64,000 bases of DNA, taken from the NCBI GenBank assembly GCA_011364985.1, contig RDOC01000002.1, forward strand, positions 160,001 through 224,000, given 5' to 3'. The translations under genes were made by a program, and so were the position numbers. This document shows, piece after piece, positions 11,495-48,258 of this stretch. The DNA is from Candidatus Thorarchaeota archaeon. Its GTDB lineage: Archaea > Asgardarchaeota > Thorarchaeia > Thorarchaeales > Thorarchaeaceae. Every line of letters begins with the position of its first letter. Position 1 is the first letter of the stretch. Below the pieces are notes generated by a model that was given only the letters and a program-made list of their open reading frames with translations, was not told the origin of the DNA and did not search any database.

Positions 11495-13501
11495 TCAGTC
11501 ATCATTATCAGGATAGGGGAGCCTGATCTGGCTCAGCATGGCTGAAACATCGTCATTCCAAGTGTCGTCTTCGTTGAGTATTCGTTGGTAGAATCTCCAT
11601 GAATAACTTCTGTAGGATACGACACGGTAACAAGACAAAGCCAAATCTTGTTCTGCAGCCTTCCCTGGCAATTCTATCATTATTTGGCGAGCAATTGAGG
11701 GTGGAACTCGGGCCATTATCAATGACCATCTTCCCCCTCTTGCTACAAAGACTGTAGCTGAAGGTGAATGTTTCAAAAACCCTTGGACAAATGAACAAAT
11801 CTGACCAGATCGACCCTGTGCAATCAATGCAATTGTCATATGATTTCGAAATACAGGTGTATAAGATATATCAACGACAGTCTTCTTTTTCATTTCCATA
11901 ATGGCATCAAGTAGCTCTTCTCTTGTAAGGCCAAGTTTCTGCAGGTATTCCAGTTGTTCAAACGATGCCAAATATCCAAGATTTGCTGTTGCATCAAGGC
12001 ATTTGACCCATTTTCGCTTTGGCTGATATGGTTTTTGTCCTATCCATGTACCAAATTCACTTTCGAGTTTCTTTAGAGTTTGATTTCCAAGCAATGAGTT
12101 TTGTATTCGCTTGAAAGAAACTCTCCAGCTATTTTCATGGAAGTCATAGAGATTTGCATTAGTAATGCTTGCAGACCAATCTAATGTTATGACATTGGGT
12201 CTAATTTTCTTTACCCGATCCACAGCCAAAGGTGGCATTTCCATTATCTGGATATGGGGTTCTCTGTAACTCTGTGCTGCAATACTTGCTGACCATTTCA
12301 TATGCTTGTGGGGCCATTGATGTGCTCTTGTAACATCTATCAAACCAACAAGCCCTAAAGCCTGTGGTCTTAAGTGAGTTCTAATTCTTAGACCAGACGC
12401 CAATAGAAGAAATCTGTTTTTCCAATTCTCCTGAGATTCACTAGCTTCTTTTCGGGTGATTGGTAAACTAACAACAATCTTCTTTGTTCTGTTAAGCTCA
12501 GCTGTACATTCTATTGCTTTTCGGAAAACACTTGGTGTTGTTTCTACTATTCTGAACAATGCAGGTGTCCAAGGATTCCATTCTTCGTCACGTATTGCAC
12601 TTGATGGCAAAGCCAATTGATGTCGAGAACTTCTCTGGATTATTCTAACATATGATGGAATATCCATGTCACTAAATTTTCGTATTACATATCCTAGCAA
12701 GAGTGTGTTAAGAACATCTAATGGATAGATTCTGTTGAAATAGTCCACAGGATCTTCTCGTGGAATATCCCATCTTGACACCAGTGTGAAAAATGCCATT
12801 ATCTGTTCTCTGACTATGTCTTCATAGGCTTCAGGAATCAGCTGCTGCATTGTATTTCTGGCATCTTTCCCCAAGCGCAGGTTTGGAATATGCACATCAT
12901 GAATCAGTTTGGTCAGTTGCTCCCAAGTTGGCGATTCACTTACCAAAACACTATTCATCCATTTCTTGGCTTTGATCAAGGATTTCTTAGAAGCAAAGAA
13001 CGATGAATACTCCTCAAACTCTTCTTCAAACTCAAGTGCTCCAACCTCAAAAGGGAAAATTGGATGCGCTTCAAGGACTCTAAAATCCGATTTACTCAGG
13101 ATAACAAGCCAAAGTCTGAAATCATCCACGATTCGGTGAACAAAAACAATAACATTCAATCCAGTTCTATCTATCCTGCTAAACCACCCTTTCGTTGATG
13201 GAGGGTACAATGGTTCTGGTCTATTTCCATCTACTGAATATTGTTTCTCGGTTTTGAGTATAGGATTCAATTTGATATTCAATAGCTGACTTCTCAGAAC
13301 TCTTACCGATTTACTCCCTTTGTCGATAAGAACGTCGCATTCGATTCTGAATACTTTCTCAATGTTAGCATCAATCTTCTTTTCCAGTAGAATCTGTGGA
13401 CCCGTAGTATCATAGGAAAGAAGGGCTCTTTCTGGTCTCCCCTCCACCAATACCTGTACTGGCAGACAGCTGACTTGGTGACCCAAATATCTTCTCTCCA
13501 T
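11495..13501 (-). CDS. Hypothetical protein, 668 aa; possible C-terminal HTH/AsnC-like region
   Basis: Long uninterrupted ORF; no confident family motif. Confidence 0.7.
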   Translation of the reverse strand: MERRYLGHQVSCLPVQVLVEGRPERALLSYDTTGPQILLEKKIDANIEKVFRIECDVLIDKGSKSVRVLRSQLLNIKLNPILKTEKQYSVDGNRPEPLYPPSTKGWFSRIDRTGLNVIVFVHRIVDDFRLWLVILSKSDFRVLEAHPIFPFEVGALEFEEEFEEYSSFFASKKSLIKAKKWMNSVLVSESPTWEQLTKLIHDVHIPNLRLGKDARNTMQQLIPEAYEDIVREQIMAFFTLVSRWDIPREDPVDYFNRIYPLDVLNTLLLGYVIRKFSDMDIPSYVRIIQRSSRHQLALPSSAIRDEEWNPWTPALFRIVETTPSVFRKAIECTAELNRTKKIVVSLPITRKEASESQENWKNRFLLLASGLRIRTHLRPQALGLVGLIDVTRAHQWPHKHMKWSASIAAQSYREPHIQIMEMPPLAVDRVKKIRPNVITLDWSASITNANLYDFHENSWRVSFKRIQNSLLGNQTLKKLESEFGTWIGQKPYQPKRKWVKCLDATANLGYLASFEQLEYLQKLGLTREELLDAIMEMKKKTVVDISYTPVFRNHMTIALIAQGRSGQICSFVQGFLKHSPSATVFVARGGRWSLIMARVPPSIARQIMIELPGKAAEQDLALSCYRVVSYRSYSWRFYQRILNEDDTWNDDVSAMLSQIRLPYPDNDD

Positions 13502-15547: not shown

Positions 15548-15800
15548 TCGTCACACCTCAGGTTTGTATTTCGGCGCTTTGTCTTTGTTTCTTAATGAAA
15601 CACATGCTCGACGCAACCGAGTCAAAACCAGTCTAGCAATAATTGACAGCCAACTCCAATTCGATGTGCCTCTCGAAATGGCGCCAAACCAAGTAATATC
15701 AGAGATAAGTAGTAGACTCGGAATACTGCAAATCCTACAATTTCGTAGATAATATCTCTTGAAGAATGCCAGAAAATGTGTTAGATTTTCACTTATTCGA

Positions 15801-16200
15801 TTAAAAATCATGAATTTCTGCACCTTCTTCTTCAAGCGTATCTTCTATCTCTTTCAATATCTCATTCCTATTCTCAGAACTTATCTTGCGCCCTATCAGA
15901 TTGAATCTAACCTCGTTCTCAATGTCTTCTGAGGATAAGATTTGGGTCTTAACCTCCTCAGAGGGTAAAGATAGTAATGTCAATTCCACAAAGTCTGTTT
16001 CATTCTCCACATTGCACAAATGGACGATGACATCTAGCCTTCTTCTACGCCTACCTTCCTCAAGACGAACACCGACAAATCGCAGTTCAGGGATCTCTTC
16101 TGGAACTACCTCTTCACCCTCCATTTGAATCCAATCAGACTCTGCTGACTCTAGCTTCTCGATAATGCCCCATTATGGCACTCTGAATCCTGGAATACTC
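15801..16200 (-). pseudogene. C-terminal remnant of the TnpB-associated partner protein
   Basis: VHLCNVENETDFVELTLLSLPSEEVK matches VHLCNVEDDTDFTELVLLSLSSELVK in 24597-25034; 5' limit approximate. Confidence 0.7.
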
Positions 16201-16310
16201 AAATAGAATGTGTACCAATCGCAGGCTCACAAGAGATTCTGCGTCGATGTTAACATCTTATCTCCGGTTGGATTCAATATCCACAAGCTGGCTACACTCT
16301 GCTAAGAGCT

Positions 16311-16979
16311 CTCTATGTTGCAATTGGTCGTTTGAAGAACATCAGAAATACAGCGCACAAGGGTAATTTCAAGGGAAGAAAGTTCAGGGGCATGATACAC
16401 TCATGGGCCTTTGCTAGGATTACTGAAAGCCTTAGGCATGGGCTTACTCAGCTTGGGTGGAAGGCTGATGGAAAAAACTCTCGTTTTCGAGTTGTGCCTG
16501 AAATTTAGACTTCTATCATGTACTGGAAGTGTGGAGCTAAGGGAATACGACCCAAACAGAGCTACTTCAGATGCCTTTCGTGTGGTCGCCAGACAAATGC
16601 TGATAGGAATGGAGCCATCAATATCGCCGGACGCCTTATTACGCTTACAAAGTCATTGCACTCTGTGAGAGGACTAGGTAAGTGGGCCGACTCTGTCCAG
16701 AGGACAGGGAAGCGTTCACGACTGAAAGCCCGAAAGAAGAAGCCTTCTCAAGGGAAGTCCTTACTCTCAAGAATGGAACAATCATCAAGTTCCAGAGAGT
16801 CCGCGGCTGTTCACTTTGTTCAATCGGACCTTACCAGTTTCAGCGATGACACTGAAAAGAGTGATCATGACCCCGCCATGGAAAGAACTGTGGAAAAGCT
16901 CTCTGTTGCTGGAAGTGATGCAGCCAGAATTCGACAGGAGAAAGAAGTCAGGTCTTCAGGAGGGATCCCATCCCAATGA
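16311..16979 (+). pseudogene. tnpB: TnpB pseudogene, C-terminal half
   Basis: LYVAIGRLKNIR..HSWAFARIT..VPEI*TSIMYWKC..NADRNGAINIA; collinear with 27029-28705; internal TAG. Confidence 0.88.
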
Positions 16980-17130
16980 AGGTTGACAATGCTCTTGCTA
17001 ATTCTTGTATTTCAAATGAAATACGAAGAGGTGGTGACACTGGCAGGAGAAGGGCGGAACACAGAGGTTTCTTACAGTTGTGTTCACTCACAAGAAATTG
17101 TAAGAAATAGGTTGTAATACAGGTGCTTTA
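16980..17130 (+). ncRNA. Putative TnpB omega/re-RNA 3' scaffold plus guide, copy 1 (RNA probably begins inside the ORF)
   Basis: Conserved blocks ggttgacaatgctcttgctaat, ggcggaacacagaggtttc, gttcactcacaa; terminal hairpin tttcttacagtt/aattgtaagaaa. Confidence 0.65.
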
Positions 17131-17169
17131 GTACCCTAGTACGAAACAACACCGTGGTGGATTGTTACG

Positions 17170-22094: not shown

Positions 22095-22141
22095 ATCTCA
22101 CATGATCTTGAAGGAAAAACTGTATGTTCAGCCAAAAGAAT

Positions 22142-22172
22142 TGGCGCTCCCGCCGGAACTTAAACCCGGGTC
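22142..22172 (-). repeat. Degenerate tRNA-Asp-like 3' end (att-like relic)
   Basis: Minus strand GACCCGGGTTTAAGTTCCGGCGGGAGCGCCA vs GACCCGGGTTCGAATCCCGGCGGGGGCGCCA (24548-24578): 26/31 identical. Confidence 0.8.
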
Positions 22173-23310
22173 AATGCCCTCGTTCAATCAGTGTGTTCAC
22201 TTGTTTCTGCGTTAGCATCGAGAAATCAGTAAGTCTAGATTGCACGAGATTGCCAAATTCCTCCTTACTAATTGGTGTAATAAGCTCAGTTAGCTGTTTT
22301 ATCAGTCCAAATGACACATTAAGTGCAGGTCCACTTGATTTTCTTGCTTTTGACGCTTTGCCTTTCTTACCCCCTAGTCCTTTTACCCAATCAGTCATCG
22401 CTTTATAGACTTCATCCTTGCTTTTACCATCAACTACTCCATGCGTTTTGCTATAAATTTGCCAAAGTTCATCAAATTTCCCTTGAGTAATATTCTCTAG
22501 CGGACTATATCCTCTAATTCCATCAGGATACACCCAAATGAATGCATATGCATCACTGTATCTTGGAAGTTGAGGAGTGTTGTAAGGAAGAAGCAACATT
22601 TTCAAACCATTTTCATGGAATCCAAATCTGCTGGATGAAATCTTGACCAAAATGCCTCTGAATGACTCCTGAAGTTTCTTGAATGCTCTTTCAAATGATT
22701 CGGAAACCATAGTCTGAACACGCAAGCAAGGTTTCTCGTTGCCATACTCTTCTAGGATTTCTCTACAAAAGTCATCATACTCAGCCCCAAGAATCATTTG
22801 TTCGACTTTGGAACGTGTTTCCATTTTTGTTTCGTCAATCGGTTCCAAAGATTCATAGAACTCATCTATTGCATCAGGTCGAATTTCCCATATCACGCCT
22901 TCAGTTGCAACATCATCCGTTGCCTGTCTAATATCAGCTGGAAGAAATGGTCTGAATGCACCTGTTCTGGCTCTGATTACATGTTTTGCAACTCCAATTA
23001 GCGACTCATCGTCTAGTTGTTTCGATTTGATTTCTTCGTCACTCACAAAGACAGTTAGCTTTCTTCCACCATATCTACGGAATTGTTTCTCTTCTTCCTT
23101 TTCTCTAATTACCACTTCTGGGGTAGCAGTTAGAAGGGCCTTGGAAAATACCGTTTCCGTGTTTTTGTTTATTTTCTCAAGGATAGGATTCCAACCCTCT
23201 CCCATAAACTTCCTTTTTCTCCACCAATGTCTTGGCTTGGAAAGCTGCCTGCGTATCCAATTTCCTATATCCTTAAGTAACGTGTATGCAAAGGATACAT
23301 CTACCCCCAC
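22171..23310 (-). CDS. Hypothetical protein, 379 aa
   Basis: Long ORF; its stop overlaps the tRNA relic. Confidence 0.7.
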   Translation of the reverse strand: MGVDVSFAYTLLKDIGNWIRRQLSKPRHWWRKRKFMGEGWNPILEKINKNTETVFSKALLTATPEVVIREKEEEKQFRRYGGRKLTVFVSDEEIKSKQLDDESLIGVAKHVIRARTGAFRPFLPADIRQATDDVATEGVIWEIRPDAIDEFYESLEPIDETKMETRSKVEQMILGAEYDDFCREILEEYGNEKPCLRVQTMVSESFERAFKKLQESFRGILVKISSSRFGFHENGLKMLLLPYNTPQLPRYSDAYAFIWVYPDGIRGYSPLENITQGKFDELWQIYSKTHGVVDGKSKDEVYKAMTDWVKGLGGKKGKASKARKSSGPALNVSFGLIKQLTELITPISKEEFGNLVQSRLTDFSMLTQKQVNTLIERGH

Positions 23311-23335
23311 TACTTATTGCCCTCCCTTAAGTTAA

Positions 23336-23677
23336 TCAAGATGCGTCTTCTTCGCAATCCCACATCTTTTCTTCGAGTTGCCTCATATATAATTCCAAGC
23401 ATGATGGGTTCTTGCATACAAATTCAATTTCGCCATTCATCTCATCTTCTGCAAGAGTTCCTAGGTTTTGAAATGATATCGCATTTCCACATGCAGCACA
23501 AGTCATTCTCCCCAATTCGAAATCTTTCCAGACTTTCCGTTTTCGGAGTATATACTCTACCTCAAAGGCGTCAACTGGATCCATTTGCAGCCTTGACCTA
23601 ACATATCCTATCCCCTTAGCTGTAGATATAGTTGCAATGAAGAAACCTACTACAATGATTAGTTCAAATGGCCACAT
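23336..23677 (-). CDS. Small membrane-anchored Zn-finger protein
   Basis: N-terminal TM; CAACG and CKNPSC. Confidence 0.65.
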   Translation of the reverse strand: MWPFELIIVVGFFIATISTAKGIGYVRSRLQMDPVDAFEVEYILRKRKVWKDFELGRMTCAACGNAISFQNLGTLAEDEMNGEIEFVCKNPSCLELYMRQLEEKMWDCEEDAS

Positions 23678-24470
23678 ACCACCACTTCACGGTCCATTTC
23701 TTTTGCACAAACTCAATCTCATCTCGGAATCGGTGAGATTTAACTTTTGGGTCAATGCATCTCTTTGCTAAGTAGACATGGATTTGAATATTTATCGTAT
23801 TAAGAAACTCAAATTCGAAGAATAATTCAGGAAGATTCACGAACTTCTTCGTAATCGATTTTCAGAACTGGCACCCCTTGTTTCTTTACAACAGTCATAA
23901 GACCTTCATCATCCAGAGTATAGCCTCTTTCACTTAGGAAATTAAAACCTTCGCATTCCCCTCCATTAGAATATAGTATTCATTGAACCATTCCATGAAA
24001 TCTTGACGAAACAGTACGGTAAAGAGCTTGACACGTTCCCTGAAGATCTTCGCCCTCACTCCACCTTCAAGTATAGCAATGAAGAAGGCAAGCAGACTTG
24101 AAGTAAGAAATCCTGTTATTAAATTCCCAATAACGCCTACAAAGTAGTTCATTTTCGGATGGATACTGCATGAACCAAATCAAAGCCATTATACTTGCAC
24201 ACAATACAAAACTCGTTGTTTTGTGAACTCGATGACCAAATCACGTTCATGAGTTGTGAATTCAAACCCCTCTGGTATTTCGGGACCATTTTCTTTATTC
24301 ATTTTCAAATCATGCCCAAGTAGTGAAACCTTCTAGTGTCACATTGTCATGAGAACTGATAAACCTGCACTCAGATAGAGTGACCTTCAAGAAACACTGT
24401 GAAACCGATTTTGCCATTGTTCAAGAACGACAACTTTAATAGAAAACCAAAAGTGGAGCAGTCGAACCAT

Positions 24471-24578
24471 GCCCCTGTAGTGTAGTACGGTCAGTACTCC
24501 AGATGACCTGAAGTATCCGGAATAGCATTCAAGACTGTCACTCTTGAGACCCGGGTTCGAATCCCGGCGGGGGCGCCA
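24471..24578 (+). tRNA. tRNA-Asp(GTC) with 30-nt D-loop intron (24493-24522)
   Basis: GCCCCTG/CGGGGGC, G73, CCA; CAAGA-CT-GTC-AC-TCTTG; relaxed BHB ACGG-TCA / CCGG-AAT restores CGGTCTAGCAT. Confidence 0.95.
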
Positions 24579-24596
24579 TCTCCTTTTCGGGAAGAA

Positions 24597-26769
24597 TCAG
24601 GAATAGTCTATTCTTACTCCCCTCTTCTCAAGTGCATCCATGATCTCCTTCAAAATCTCATCATTTTCATCAGAAGTCACCCTACGACCCCTTAGATTGC
24701 ATCGGACTTCTCGTTCAATGTAATCAGCCGATATTGATTGAATCTTCACAAGCTCAGACGAGAGCGATAACAGAACCAATTCCGTAAAGTCAGTATCATC
24801 CTCCACATTGCACAAGTGAACGACAACATTCAACATTCTTCCACGGATAGATTCTTCAATGCGGGCACTGACAGAAAGCGTGGTAGCTTCCAACTCAACA
24901 AGATGGTTCAGCAGATGCCAGTTCTTGGCAAGCCAAGCTGCGCTTCTTCCAGAGGAAGTGGGAGAGGGTACAGAAATGTATTGCGTGAAGTGGACTTTGT
25001 CTTCTATTCGCTCATTCATCAAATGGATTTTCAAAACGTATTGATTCCGAAGGAACGATTTTCTTCAAAATATGCTTAGGACCTTTAGCTGGAACCATCG
25101 TGATTGCAATTCTGGGCACTGCTTTGCTAGAATCTGTGTTTTCAAATGTCAGCGTCGCCCATTTTTCATAGAATTCGCCCATCACTAGCGAATCAGCAAG
25201 TTGACTAACGAGTTGATCAAAGACCTTCTTTGTGATTTCATAATCTTGAGATATATCAAGTGTCACAACGCCCTTCCAGAGGGTTTTCAGTTCTAGAACA
25301 TCACCAGCAAGTGCATTGTATTCCGCAAGTATCGATTGTTCATATGCATCTAATTGGCCAAGATGAGAATGCGGAGGAATAGAATCCAGCATTGCTTTCC
25401 ATTCAGCTTCTGTAAGACTTTCTTTCCATGAATAGAATTCAGGAGCATAAACATTCGATTCTTTGGTTCGAGGTTTCCTACCGTAGAGGTTGAAACGAAA
25501 CCCTGCTTTTGTCTTCACCTCAAGTATCATAATTGGGGTCCAGATGTACTGATTCGCAGCTTTCTTGTTACGAACAAAGAGAACAAGATCAATCCTACCA
25601 GCTCCTTGAGGTCCAGTAACAGGGACTTCTGCAAGATACTGCATTCCAGACGGCTCCTGTAGAAGGTCGTCACCAGCAAAGACGGCTGCTTTCAGAGAAC
25701 TAGGATGTGAAAATCCTGAGAGCAGAACTCTATGCCAGTCGTTTCCTTCTCGTTGTGTCTTTTTGCTAACTTCTTCAATGAAATTGGAAATATCGGCATC
25801 TCCAACTATATCATTCTCAATATGAGCAAGGATAACCTGTCCTCTTTTCCCAGTGGAGTCATCCTTTTCCATCTCAGCTTTTGCCTTGCCCATGAGAAAA
25901 TCAACCCCTGGATTCTCAGTTGGACCCTCTATCTGCTCACTGATTCTCTTGGCACTGCCAATTCTTTGACTAAACCGAGTTCTAATCTCAAGCACAAGTC
26001 TACGAAGCTCTTGGTCTGCATCCGGATAGAAGTTTTTTCGACCAATCCTTCCTCCCGTGTAAATCCAATCAAGGAAAGGAATCAATCTATGAGTCAAAAG
26101 TCGAATGTATCTCTGACTCTCCTTTCGTGGAACACCATGGATGAAGCATTGACGACACAACTCAACTAGATGAGCACGAATCATATCACCGAAATCAAGA
26201 GCGGGAAGCGTGGGATGGGTGAGTAGTATCCGAGGTTTCTTGGAGTTGCCTGGATATCCAGCTTTTAGATGAACCTTGGCATCTTCTAAGGTTGACAATT
26301 CATCAGCTACACGCTTTGGGATAACCTTCGTGCGGCCGTCTGAGAATTGCCTAATTTCATAGAGTTGTGGGTTTGGAAAGGGATATCTAGTGACCAGCAG
26401 ATCACGTAGCGTAGAGCCTGCAGAATTGAGTAGGGCATTAAGGGGACCGACAGTCCCCTCTCTCCAGCTGTATACCCGTTTGAACTCCTTGTTACCATAT
26501 CTTGCGGTACTATACCAAAGCATTTTGAGATATAATCTTCTCAATACTGGTTCTATACCTTGTACTGAAGAGAAGTCATGAGAGCCCTTAGCTTTGGATG
26601 ATTTCCACTCCTTGCGTGCGATTTTCCAGTTCTTGCTAATCTGCTGATAGAACCTGTACGTCTTTGCATTCTTCCGTTTTGATGCCAATCTTACAAGGGC
26701 TGACAATCCAGCATAAATCGCATCTGCCAAGACCACATTTGGTCTGAATTCCTGAATTTTCCGCCCCAA
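24597..26769 (-). pseudogene. Large PD-(D/E)XK-domain protein, frameshifted (ORFs 25012-26769 and 24597-25034) and probably internally deleted
   Basis: AGRIDLVLF..ILEVKTK motif; 4-bp duplication tcat-tcat at 25012-25019 whose removal joins ENPFDE to RIEDKVHF. Confidence 0.7.
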
Positions 26770-27028
26770 ATAGACTCCTCGATACTTAGAATCCCTTTTT
26801 ATTTATAAGTAATTCTTCCCTATTTGGAAATCTCCATTACTAATTTAAAGGTCGCATATGGCTTCTTTAAAAGAATAAAGGCCTATTAGATTATTTTGTT
26901 TAATAAGTTTATATTGTTTGTCACAGAAATATGTACGAGTTCAAAGGCTCTACTCTTGACAATAAAGGGAGTGAACTCAACTGACTCAGAAATGGGTCAG
27001 AAGTTTATATTGTATTGGGCGAAAATCA

Positions 27029-28705
27029 ATGGCTCGGTTTCAAGGAACTACAATCAGCGTCAAGGTCCCGATAAACTGGGAAGCAATGACGATGAAATCT
27101 AAGCAGAGGCTTAGACAGATTGTAGGAAGGGACACGAGGGTGATTCGTGCATTTCTCGGGATAATCGAACAACATGAAAACGACTTGCTTGCTGGTCGCA
27201 ATAAGCATCGAATTCATGACGGGAAGCTAGACAAGCTTACCATGACCGCACTCAGAGTCAAGGCTGGCTATGCTCAAAGAGCCAGTGTTCCTCATGACTT
27301 CAAGGCTCGCTTCCCACGCATCTCCCAAAACGAGATAACCGAGTGTCGACAGACTGCTGTTGCTCTCTACAAGAGCTACCTGAAACTTAGAGCTAAAAGA
27401 GGCTTGAATGTTTCACGACCAGCGTCAATCAATCAAAGCCGACGGATACCAAGATGGGTCTTTTCGCAGAGATTCAAACTTCTTGAGAGAAGTACTGCTG
27501 CTTCACGATGGTGGCTTGATATTAGGGACTCTCTTGACTCAGTACAAGAGGGACGAACATTTCATGACCGACTGAATATTCCCCTAAAGATGTCACCTTT
27601 CCACTTCAACCAGATTAAACGAGGCGATGTGAAGGCAGTTCAAATCTTTACTGACCGCTTTGGGAAGTGGTGGGCAACCATTGCGGTTAGGATTTTTACA
27701 GACCTACCTCCCAAAGAGGATCTTCCGATAGGAATCCTTGGAATTGACTTGGGTATTGAAAAGGCAGCCTGCTCGACACTGATTACACCGAAGAAAACAA
27801 GAGAAACAAGGTACTTTGTCCAGCGGCAGAAAGTCAAGGTCATCAAGAAGTACGACAGACTTGTTGCTGACCTTCAGAGGACGATGCAGAATCACAAAAG
27901 TAACGGACTTCCATATGACAAGATGGCGAAAAAGCTCCGGCAGATGAAAGCCAAGAGAGAGAATGTTGCTAAAGAGTACGACCGTGTTCTTCTTCGCCAG
28001 ATTCTCGACTACATCTTAGATCTATCGGAGAAGTATACACTCTATGTTGCCATTGGTCGCCTGAAGAATATACGACTACGTGCTAAACGAGGAAACTACA
28101 AGGGGCGAAGGTTCAGAGCAATGATTCATTCATGGGCCTTTGCTCGAATAACAGATGGCCTCAAACATGGCCTCGCTCAGCAGGGGTGGAAGGTCGATGG
28201 AAAGGATACCTGCTTTAGAGCTGTTCCAGAGGCATGGACTTCTATCATGTGCTGGAAATGCGGGAGCAAGGGAACACGTCCCAAACAGAATTACTTCCAT
28301 TGTACCTCCTGTGGACACAAGACCAATGCTGACAGAAATGGTAGTATCAACATTGCAGCACGTATGCTCATGCTCACAAAGTCACTGCACTCTGTGAGAG
28401 GACTAGGTATGTGGACTAGGGCTGTAGATAGGGCTCGACGTGCGCGACCGAAAGCCCGAAAGAAGAAGTCTTCTCAAGGGAAGTCCTTACTCTCCTCTAA
28501 GGATTCAACATCAAATCTTGGAGAGTCCGCGGCTGTTCACTTTGTCCAGTCGGACTTTGCTGGCTTCAGTGATGAAACAAGCGAGAGTGATGATGACCCC
28601 GTCGTGGCAAATACTGTGAAAGCTCTCTCTGTCATTGAGGGTGATGACTCAATAGCAATACAGGAGAAAGAAGCCAGGTCTTCAGGAGGGATTCCATCCC
28701 GATGA
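27029..28705 (+). CDS. tnpB: TnpB-family RNA-guided endonuclease with rearranged RuvC-II
   Basis: LGIDLG (RuvC-I), VAIGRL (Gly at canonical Glu), VPEAWTSIMCWKCG, CTSCG Zn finger, NADRNGSINIA (RuvC-III). Confidence 0.92.
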   Translation: MARFQGTTISVKVPINWEAMTMKSKQRLRQIVGRDTRVIRAFLGIIEQHENDLLAGRNKHRIHDGKLDKLTMTALRVKAGYAQRASVPHDFKARFPRISQNEITECRQTAVALYKSYLKLRAKRGLNVSRPASINQSRRIPRWVFSQRFKLLERSTAASRWWLDIRDSLDSVQEGRTFHDRLNIPLKMSPFHFNQIKRGDVKAVQIFTDRFGKWWATIAVRIFTDLPPKEDLPIGILGIDLGIEKAACSTLITPKKTRETRYFVQRQKVKVIKKYDRLVADLQRTMQNHKSNGLPYDKMAKKLRQMKAKRENVAKEYDRVLLRQILDYILDLSEKYTLYVAIGRLKNIRLRAKRGNYKGRRFRAMIHSWAFARITDGLKHGLAQQGWKVDGKDTCFRAVPEAWTSIMCWKCGSKGTRPKQNYFHCTSCGHKTNADRNGSINIAARMLMLTKSLHSVRGLGMWTRAVDRARRARPKARKKKSSQGKSLLSSKDSTSNLGESAAVHFVQSDFAGFSDETSESDDDPVVANTVKALSVIEGDDSIAIQEKEARSSGGIPSR

Positions 28706-28850
28706 TGGTTGACAATGCTCTTGCTAATCTAGGAATCCATTGGATTCCAAGAGGTGGCGACACTGGCAAGAGAGGGGCGGAACACAGAGGTTTCATGCAG
28801 TTGTGGTTCACTCACAATTTTAAAAGCAGGTCATACACTACAGGGGCTCG
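28706..28850 (+). ncRNA. Putative TnpB omega/re-RNA 3' scaffold plus guide, copy 2
   Basis: Same conserved blocks as 16980-17111; the variable hairpin differs in sequence but still pairs (ggaatcca-t-tggattcc vs gtatttca-aa-tgaaatac). Confidence 0.7.
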
Positions 28851-29207
28851 GATTGCTCGGCCTCCAGCATTTCTCCGAACTTGTAGCACCAGCCCTAGTT
28901 TCACAACCGGTTTTGTAGAAACTGAAGATTTTTCTCGATACAGAACTGCTTCCTGTCAGTCTGTTAGCCAACTAGCGCAATGCTTTTTACCGAAGAAGCT
29001 AGTATGTACACTGGTTCACCCAAACCTGCCTAGATGATATTCTATCTTTCGTTTTATGGAAAGGTTTTTATCAAGACAATTTGCCGTCCGAATAGCCCAG
29101 GCAGAACTGCTTCCCACTCTAGCATGGCCAAGCGTTACATTCCATAGAAGCCATTATACTACATGACTATATGTCTGGCATGTCACGGTGGCCTGTGATG
29201 ACGATAG

Positions 29208-29284
29208 GGGCTCGTGGCGCAGCTAGGTAGCGCAGCAGGCTTTTAACCTGATGGCCGCGGGTTCGAATCCCGCCGAGCCCGCCA
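29208..29284 (+). tRNA. tRNA-Lys(TTT), intronless
   Basis: GGGCTCG/CGAGCCC, CAGG-CT-TTT-AA-CCTG, GGTTCGAATCC, CCA. Confidence 0.95.
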
Positions 29285-47887: not shown

Positions 47888-48118
47888 CGGTCTAAGACCT
47901 TTTTCCACAGGGGAAATTCCAAATCGGGTTGTAGAGAGTCCATCGTTGGTCATACTGCTCAGACGAGTCTTCTCAGTTTCAGTGATAAATCTGGAATGAG
48001 TGGTAATGACCCAATCGTGGAAAGAACTATGGAAAAACTCTTTGTGACTGAGAGTGATGCCTCAGCAGCAGTATAGGAGAAGGAAGCCGGATTTGCAGGA
48101 GGGATTGCATCCCGATGA
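47888..48118 (+). pseudogene. tnpB: Extreme C-terminal remnant of a third tnpB copy
   Basis: RESIVGHTAQTSLLSFSDKSGMSGNDPIVERTMEKL..*EKEAGFAGGIASR aligns to the tails of both other copies. Confidence 0.75.
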
Positions 48119-48258
48119 GTGTGGACAATGCCTTCGCCATTTCTCAGATAATACTGGGTGTTGCGTTGACGCTCGTCTAAGGAAGGGGAGGACACAGAAG
48201 TTTCGATAGTCGGAGTTCACTCGACTTGTAGAAACAGGCCAGGTCTTGGTAAGAAATC
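48119..48258 (+). ncRNA. Putative omega/re-RNA scaffold plus guide, copy 3 (orphan)
   Basis: gacaatgc, acacaga, gtttc..gttcactc..gaaacagg blocks as in copies 1 and 2. Confidence 0.55.

Follow-up and report, generated by a model that had tools for sequence, protein, structure and literature searches.

A probable damaged aCas1-TnpB mobile element beside a tRNA-Asp gene in a Thorarchaeota genome

The stretch analyzed here, called the window, comprises 64,000 nucleotides (nt) of a Thorarchaeota genome (contig C15:160001-224000; the genome is 74% complete). Within it a large gene and a tnpB gene are divergently arranged next to a tRNA-Asp gene. This locus, copy 1, is very probably a damaged member of a family of two-gene mobile elements of Thorarchaeota in which TnpB is accompanied by an Asgard Cas1 (aCas1), an assignment that draws on sequence comparison and structural models. 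An earlier note on this DNA, made from the letters alone, had proposed an undescribed TnpB-associated element. The aCas1-TnpB module is real, but it is not undescribed: the family has been catalogued computationally, and its mechanism is so far a proposal drawn from sequence. The main text of Altae-Tran et al. 2023 (PMC10691335) describes two groups of Asgard TnpB linked to aCas1 (Cas1H-Asgard-1 and Cas1H-Asgard-2), credits aCas1 to Makarova 2020, proposes aCas1 as the transposase and treats the aCas1-TnpB loci as a probable transposon family. The family signature given there is a hypervariable stretch followed by GTTCACTCA, downstream of tnpB; the hypervariable stretch is suggested as a possible guide, and a rearranged TnpB active site is also described.

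The published GTTCACTCA signature, together with a divergent TnpB at 93 of 103 partner loci, identifies the module as this family. Copy 1 shares with the published loci the Asgard host (the named homologs of the partner are nearly all from Thorarchaeota), the Cas1-fold partner and the hypervariable stretch with its motif; the two TnpB groups, one rearranged with 550-630 amino acids (aa) and one canonical with ~720 aa, are likewise common to both. Copy 1 differs in being internally deleted. In contrast to what the main text of that paper offers, the hypervariable stretch here pairs with sequence 3' of GTTCACTCA and the guide comes after the GGTY end; that text also contains nothing on the splitting of a tRNA along with its replacement, on protection by introns or on rows of several guides. 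In the literature searched we found no description of a guide 3' of the GTTCACTCA hairpin that equals host sequence at the insertion point, and no paper on guides or targets of the aCas1-TnpB family.

The two genes and the aCas1 partner

Copy 1 consists of the following parts (ORF, open reading frame):

24597-26769, minus strand: aCas1 partner gene, a 585-aa ORF and a 145-aa ORF in a different frame
26770-27028: AT-rich spacer of 259 nt between the divergent transcripts
27029-28705, plus strand: TnpB, intact, 558 aa
28443-28834, plus strand: predicted omega-RNA scaffold, from conservation and arm pairing, 5' limit approximate
28806-28814, plus strand: GTTCACTCA in the loop of the terminal hairpin
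28827-28834, plus strand: right end of the element, CAGGTCAT
28835-28854, plus strand: predicted guide, its first 13 nt antisense to the 5' end of tRNA-Asp

That the two genes travel as a unit, as had been supposed, is borne out by the linkage at 93 of the 103 partner loci and by three further intact pairs in the same genome, with partners of 1,525, 1,774 and 1,695 aa. At 85 loci the divergent TnpB lies within 300 nt (median gap 225 nt over the 93), and 2 of the 10 partner loci without TnpB end at the partner gene; these loci come from related genomes and are not independent. Conversely, of 28 close TnpBs, 22 have a partner no more than 1.5 kb away, and a further two are linked at 1.2 kb. A partner generally unlinked to tnpB, named beforehand as the outcome that would speak against a unit, is thus not what was found. 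Within the host family the partner profile matches 49 of 85 genomes, compared with 3 of the 314 genomes elsewhere in the phylum. Two types of TnpB occur: the short one, to which the window copy belongs, has 550-630 aa, Gly in place of the RuvC-II Glu and a relocated Glu, while the other has ~720 aa and the canonical triad. Both turn up in scattered positions on the partner tree (rho 0.21 for the short type), a pattern suggestive of module swapping. Seven loci (L003 4807-5427 and six more), solely with the ~720-aa type, carry an IS607-type serine TnpA convergent at the 3' end of the partner gene, and one intact copy of this kind is in the same genome as the window.

According to the structural models, the partner is an Asgard Cas1, with a Cas1 catalytic fold, a Cas4-like PD-(D/E)XK nuclease and a RecA-like domain. 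The earlier note had recognized the PD-(D/E)XK domain and missed the other two. In the window partner these are placed as follows:

25990-26769, minus strand: Cas1 catalytic (helical) domain, residues 1-260, with E73, R77, H185, D192, D195 and R198
25075-25767, minus strand: Cas4/RecB-like PD-(D/E)XK domain, residues ~335-565, with motifs E, D, ExK and QxxxY
24889-25011, minus strand: start of the RecA/RadA-like domain, first ~45 residues with a Walker A-like loop, the remainder deleted

Pfam detected no domain in 107 full-length partner homologs, and Pfam, NCBIfam and PDB sequence searches with the partner itself found nothing. An AlphaFold2 (AF2) model of residues 1-300 (predicted local distance difference test, pLDDT, 86.5) gave weak Cas1 rows with Foldseek, none under E 0.001; a wide VIA search resolved the fold, with all of the top 12 ranks being Cas1 or casposase (Z 9.2-12.7) and the next fold at Z 6.1. 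All of E73, H185, D192, D195 and R198 are present in the window partner, and their conservation across 87 homologs is 98-99%; by their spacing, they presumably correspond to the E/H/D triad of Cas1. The N-terminal beta domain of Cas1 is lacking. For the remainder we turned to an intact homolog, P0089, of which a model of residues 335-860 (pLDDT 91.3) has a PD-(D/E)XK domain with QxxxY and a RecA/RadA fold. The sole listed match of the former is the Cas4 domain of 7mi4 (Z 8.3), and the latter matches RAD51/RadA (Foldseek E 6e-6; VIA Z 12.4). An Atlas search with partner residues 870-1700 found nothing. It had been suggested that the large partner supplies mobility or an effector function; mobility is probably correct, by way of the Cas1 integrase fold. 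The statement that no transposase or CRISPR array is adjacent holds in that no Y1 transposase, integrase or array was found at the locus, and fails in that the partner has an integrase fold of its own and seven related loci carry TnpA. Neither a Y1 transposase nor a tyrosine integrase was found in the genome at its 74% completeness, and the window has one guide.

Partners of this kind usually have 1,400-1,960 aa. When compared to 1,700-aa homologs, the window partner spans residues 1-630 and 1606-1695, residues ~631-1605 (about 975 aa) being deleted with a junction at ~24872-24888. Most of the RecA-like domain and most of the C-terminal half are therefore lost, and the main lesion is this deletion rather than the frameshift on which the note had based its doubt about activity. 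The frameshift at 25012 is a 4-nt duplication (25012-25019); the 4 extra bases are missing from an independent Logan contig, probably of the same sample (depth 30.8 of 30.8), and once they are removed the frame is open for 723 codons, such that an assembly error is the probable cause. Independent contigs break at 24872/24873, the deletion junction itself, and no listed piece spans it; the deletion is thus not independently confirmed, and misassembly or a mixed population may be involved. A low-depth variant contig (depth 3.3, run X1) at 24588-24701 represents a related strain with the same tRNA-Asp/partner junction. What stands of the supposed inactivity is that copy 1 is probably non-autonomous: TnpB and the predicted guide look intact, and the copy could home but is probably unable to move alone.

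Scaffold, guide and insertion sites

The TnpB of the window has a rearranged RuvC domain with D240, G343 in place of the canonical Glu, an alternative relocated E401, D435 and a C4 zinc finger, and its C-terminal tail overlaps the RNA scaffold. As judged from sequence, the features expected of a TnpB with its omega RNA are present, namely a RuvC triad with the relocated E401, the C4 finger and a guide equal to host flank at the right end. GTTCACTCA lies ~100 nt past the TnpB stop in both window copies (17082-17090 in copy 2) and in most relatives of the 550-630-aa type. The hypervariable stretch was considered as the guide and rejected, since it pairs with its own 3' arm after GTTCACTCA and so would form the last hairpin of the scaffold. 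Pairing with its own arm reached -7.6 kcal/mol as against -5.4 (p 3e-5, over sequences that are not independent). The terminal hairpin of the window itself is weak, and folding of the whole scaffold was not significant (z -0.98). After the hairpin come the GGTY motif, similar in both TnpB types, 2 nt, and then unconserved sequence.

It is this unconserved sequence that we predict to be the guide. For copy 1 the adjacent tRNA-Asp is the only match of at least 13 nt in the genome, and the same guide is present in L043, L044, L149 and L188. First guides match their own left flank over at least 10 nt in 6 of 43 loci, where 0.38 would be expected from the flanks of other loci; three of those six are the tRNA-Asp site of copy 1. 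Some guide units in the right flanks of L044, L083 and L149 are scaffold ends of other aCas1-TnpB elements, which suggests that these elements insert into or target each other and could explain the hypervariable hairpin. At L120 a second TnpB gene begins directly after the first scaffold.

The site of copy 1 is laid out as follows:

22134-22172, minus strand: decayed 3' end of the original host tRNA-Asp, in ancestral orientation, a 79% inverted match to 24548-24586
22173-24417, minus strand: four ORFs without homologs (379, 113, 58 and 72 aa), cargo or a separate island
24418-24470, plus strand: promoter and leader of the replacement tRNA-Asp, with TATA-like TTTAATAGAAAA at 24435-24446, called by inspection
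24471-24578, plus strand: intact tRNA-Asp(GTC) with a ~30-nt D-loop intron at ~24493-24522, 18 nt from the partner stop
29208-29284, plus strand: host tRNA-Lys upstream of rpoB, the landmark of the site

In relatives free of the element, a minus-strand tRNA-Asp precedes tRNA-Lys and rpoB by ~300 nt. The tRNA-Asp at 24471-24578, which the fuller copy was correctly said to abut, is inverted relative to those relatives and appears to be a replacement copy, while the 13 nt of the original 5' end stay in their ancestral place and orientation as the guide of copy 1. Comparison with the relatives shows that the element split the host tRNA-Asp and now sits beside an inverted replacement. The fragment at 22134-22172 would then probably be the outer left mark of the insertion; its assignment is by inference, because similar tRNA-Asp fragments are present also at loci without the element. 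The split layout and guide are common to L043, L044 and L011/L149, and the block homologous with L043 and L044 begins at 24418, its left edge. L043 keeps a longer tRNA-Asp 3' piece that ends 3 nt short of the guide junction, and in L188 the guide sequence extends into the promoter of the original tRNA. A tRNA-His locus of the same genome has the same split with an inverted copy, whose anticodon stem is recoded. The connection to tRNA genes is thus real. The guide and the split host tRNA escaped the earlier note, as did the large deletion in the partner.

The only repeats flanking copy 1 are these tRNA-derived inverted ones, whereas in L001, L039 and L040 a degenerate direct repeat of 30-50 nt, derived from the tRNA-Gly 3' half, lies on either side of the element. 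The tRNA-Gly loci (L001, L039, L040 and L121) have up to three guide-like units against the anticodon loop, beyond the tRNA. One to three extra tRNA-Asp 3'-end fragments, with unrelated DNA between them as in stacked islands, are seen in L043, L044, L144, L145, L148 and L154, and in L139 the end of an unrelated, ordinary TnpB insertion sequence is located in the same hotspot upstream of tRNA-Lys. The ~230 nt of non-coding DNA at 28974-29207, upstream of tRNA-Lys and rpoB, are 70-87% conserved across the genus and partly across the family; they have no Rfam match and may be a promoter or an RNA. No ORF of the size of rpoH is listed ahead of rpoB. Elsewhere, the 668-aa ORF at 11495-13501 of the window has no Pfam match and no paralog in the genome, and ARAGORN predicts a tRNA-SeC at G000 contig C11 352835-352925.

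Copy 2 is a centrally deleted version of the same two-gene arrangement, which does occur twice as first reported:

15801-16308, minus strand: aCas1 C-terminal remnant, residues ~1527-1693, one stop
16311-16979, plus strand: TnpB remnant (residues 338-558) that contains an in-frame stop and has lost one zinc-finger Cys
16980-17115, plus strand: 3' part of the scaffold and right end
17116-17135, plus strand: guide, host sequence that precedes ORF 17170; the left junction is near 15700

Nothing remains here of partner residues 1-1526, the spacer or TnpB residues 1-337, and both remnants contain stops. Homology between the copies, also claimed before, amounts to 75% nucleotide identity over 787 nt for the TnpB C-terminus and scaffold (E 2e-149) and 69% over 258 nt for the partner C-terminus (E 1e-20). 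Empty alleles in nine relatives run uninterrupted through the insertion point, copy 2 sitting exactly between the 5' flank and the guide, from which a geometry of target-adjacent motif (TAM), element and guide without long duplication follows. Empty sites therefore defined the insertion point of copy 2, as had been hoped. The copies lie 9 kb apart in the same orientation, as would be expected of a single local duplication (the other refutation named in advance) or of chance neighbours. At 69-75% identity, with different guides and different empty sites, and with the pairing recurring across the whole family, such an origin has virtually no probability, and the two are independent insertions. 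A third, gene-less remnant of an omega-RNA scaffold, with a degenerate GTTCACTC hairpin and the end motif, is located at 47915-48250 of the window, and further scaffold remnants are on contigs C17 (L004) and C18 (L005).

Introns in tRNA-Asp and 16S targets

The guides of L111, L140, L141 and L144, which are further elements or remnants at the tRNA-Asp site, have 13-26-nt matches, behind GAAT, to the D-arm of tRNA-Asp as read without an intron, and the tRNA-Asp alleles of these same loci carry a ~30-nt intron 4 nt into the guide seed. The D-loop intron coincides with the element or a remnant of it (8:1 versus 1:11; Fisher p 4e-4, with kin that are not independent), and both intron states occur within the genus of the window. 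In a 16S-linked group, rows of 2-4 units target the neighbouring 16S gene at four places and in both orientations, and one 16S guide unit of L086 spans an intron site. Hairpin introns of 20-30 nt interrupt the 16S genes of L083, L086 and L114 near positions 1390 and 1495, next to elements whose guide rows match 16S. Escape of the replacement tRNA-Asp by a TAM change (GACT to TACT) was considered and dropped, as the split host fragment of L043 also carries the T; TACT may be the TAM of the window TnpB.

This arrangement resembles collaborative homing (PMC10448857), in which a free-standing phage endonuclease acts together with an intron: the gene next to the nuclease contains an intron, and the nuclease targets the site at which that intron inserts. 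In sequence, the guide target spans the intron site of the linked gene in L111, L140, L141 and L144 (tRNA-Asp) and in L086 (16S), though not for the window guide. Unlike collaborative homing, the nuclease here is RNA-guided and the introns are archaeal tRNA and 16S mini-introns rather than phage group I introns.

Proposed working and alternatives

We lean, if only slightly, towards a model in which aCas1 integrates, TnpB homes, and replacement tRNAs and introns protect. As integrase of the element, aCas1 would join the right end between a short T-ending motif, the TAM, and the target, whereby the host sequence beside the right end would become the TnpB guide. TnpB with its omega RNA would cut element-free alleles, and repair would copy the element or keep it in place (homing). 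Targets would often be conserved tRNA or 16S sequences; insertion into a tRNA would be survived by way of a second, usually inverted, tRNA copy beside the element, and element-linked alleles would often be protected by an intron or by recoding inside the guide seed. In its favour are the Cas1 fold with its invariant E/H/D residues, the linkage in both directions, the GTTCACTCA signature, the empty alleles at copy 2, the excess of first guides that match their own left flank, the split tRNAs with inverted replacements at tRNA-Asp and tRNA-His, the D-arm guides that span an intron-less junction, and the GGTY end common to both TnpB types. Several observations weigh against this. Terminal inverted repeats and a conserved left end are missing and no target duplication recurs consistently, unlike in casposons, and no near-identical copies were seen at different sites, leaving recent transposition without support. 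Agreement between the partner and TnpB trees is weak (rho 0.21), no target was seen for most guides in the DNA searched, the TAM is loosely defined (GAAT, GGAT, TACT, NGTT), and the Walker A lysine of the RecA-like domain is poorly conserved. The window guide fails to cover the intron of its own tRNA-Asp, to which it still has a match of 13 nt. Because terminal repeats, a conserved left end and recent identical copies are lacking, our preference stays a narrow one.

Casposons (reviewed in PMC9939771) share with the element a Cas1-family integrase fold (Z 11.0 to casposase 6opm) and the use of tRNA sites. They differ in that no PolB is found among the ORFs of the element, no terminal inverted repeats or ~15-bp target duplication are present here, and aCas1, which has no N-terminal beta domain, is joined to nuclease and RecA-like domains and accompanied by TnpB. 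With IS200/IS605 and IS607 elements the likeness is in a scaffold that overlaps the TnpB 3' end, a guide equal to flanking host sequence, the order TAM, element, target, and a rearranged RuvC-II as in the RIIr branches. However, those elements are about 2 kb in size versus 7-8 kb, and here Y1 TnpA is absent and serine TnpA occurs in some 720-aa-type loci only. A serine TnpA, in cis or in trans, might move the unit as a derivative of IS607 that carries aCas1 as a passenger or effector between tnpA and tnpB, but this is improbable. The seven ~720-aa-type loci with a convergent TnpA, the intact TnpA-bearing copy in the window's genome and a GG in the tRNA-His junction would fit such an origin, yet no 550-630-aa-type locus has TnpA beside the partner, both window copies lack an adjacent serine TnpA and a GG core at the junction, and the Cas1 catalytic residues are 98-99% conserved.

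Two further explanations give aCas1 other roles. It might be a guide-acquisition machine that inserts 35-55-nt pieces of nearby DNA behind the scaffold, duplicating the 7-nt end into a proto-CRISPR array; the cassette itself would then spread solely through cleavage by TnpB followed by homologous repair. In favour of this are arrays of 2-4 units that each open with the scaffold-end motif and match the four 16S places in both orientations, and an aCas1 domain order that resembles Cas4-Cas1 adaptation proteins. The window, though, has a single guide, at the ancestral tRNA position; copy 2 fits simple insertion; serial insertion explains the units in L044, L083 and L149 that are scaffold ends of other elements; and no Cas2 was seen, all of which makes acquisition unlikely. 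Type V CRISPR-Cas itself differs by its repeat-spacer array, where the window has one guide and the relatives have 7-nt repeats only. The other explanation, also rather implausible, is RNA-guided integration, TnpB and its guide bringing aCas1 to tRNA and rRNA sites in the manner of CRISPR-associated transposons. Guides match tRNA genes over 13-17 nt, similar to the truncated tRNA guides in type V-K elements (10.1101/2021.02.06.429022), the tRNA-Asp site has been struck repeatedly with different guides, and partner and TnpB are tightly linked. Unlike the type V-K systems, however, the element has no TnsB, TnsC or TniQ, and the catalytic residues of TnpB are conserved; TnpB types are swapped between aCas1 clades, and any TnpB element would by default have a guide that equals its flank. 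Integration at a fixed offset was rejected, as the distance from target to partner varies a hundredfold (13-1,279 nt). A more far-reaching proposal, which we consider doubtful, joins these ideas into a self-programming RNA-guided system: aCas1 would add new guides after the omega RNA, as a proto-CRISPR whose repeat is 7 nt long, or would be guided by TnpB to integrate the element at tRNA and 16S genes, and the pressure from such cutting would be a main reason why Thorarchaeota gain and spread small tRNA and rRNA introns.

A 2026 preprint (10.64898/2026.10.13.758758) calls the arrival of repeated tRNA intron gains in Asgard archaea open, and mentions neither TnpB nor Thorarchaeota. Guides against the intron-less tRNA-Asp offer a selective route for such gains, the intron data speaking to fixation and spread of introns and not to their origin. 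The family had previously just been catalogued; with a guide position, candidate targets, T-ending flanks, a domain map and intact homologs, it can now be tested directly. If it is true that aCas1 integrates the 7-8 kb element, whether by itself or under RNA guidance, this would be a second type of Cas1-based transposon, and if aCas1 is the integrase, the element would be a natural pairing of Cas1 with an ancestor of Cas12 without CRISPR.

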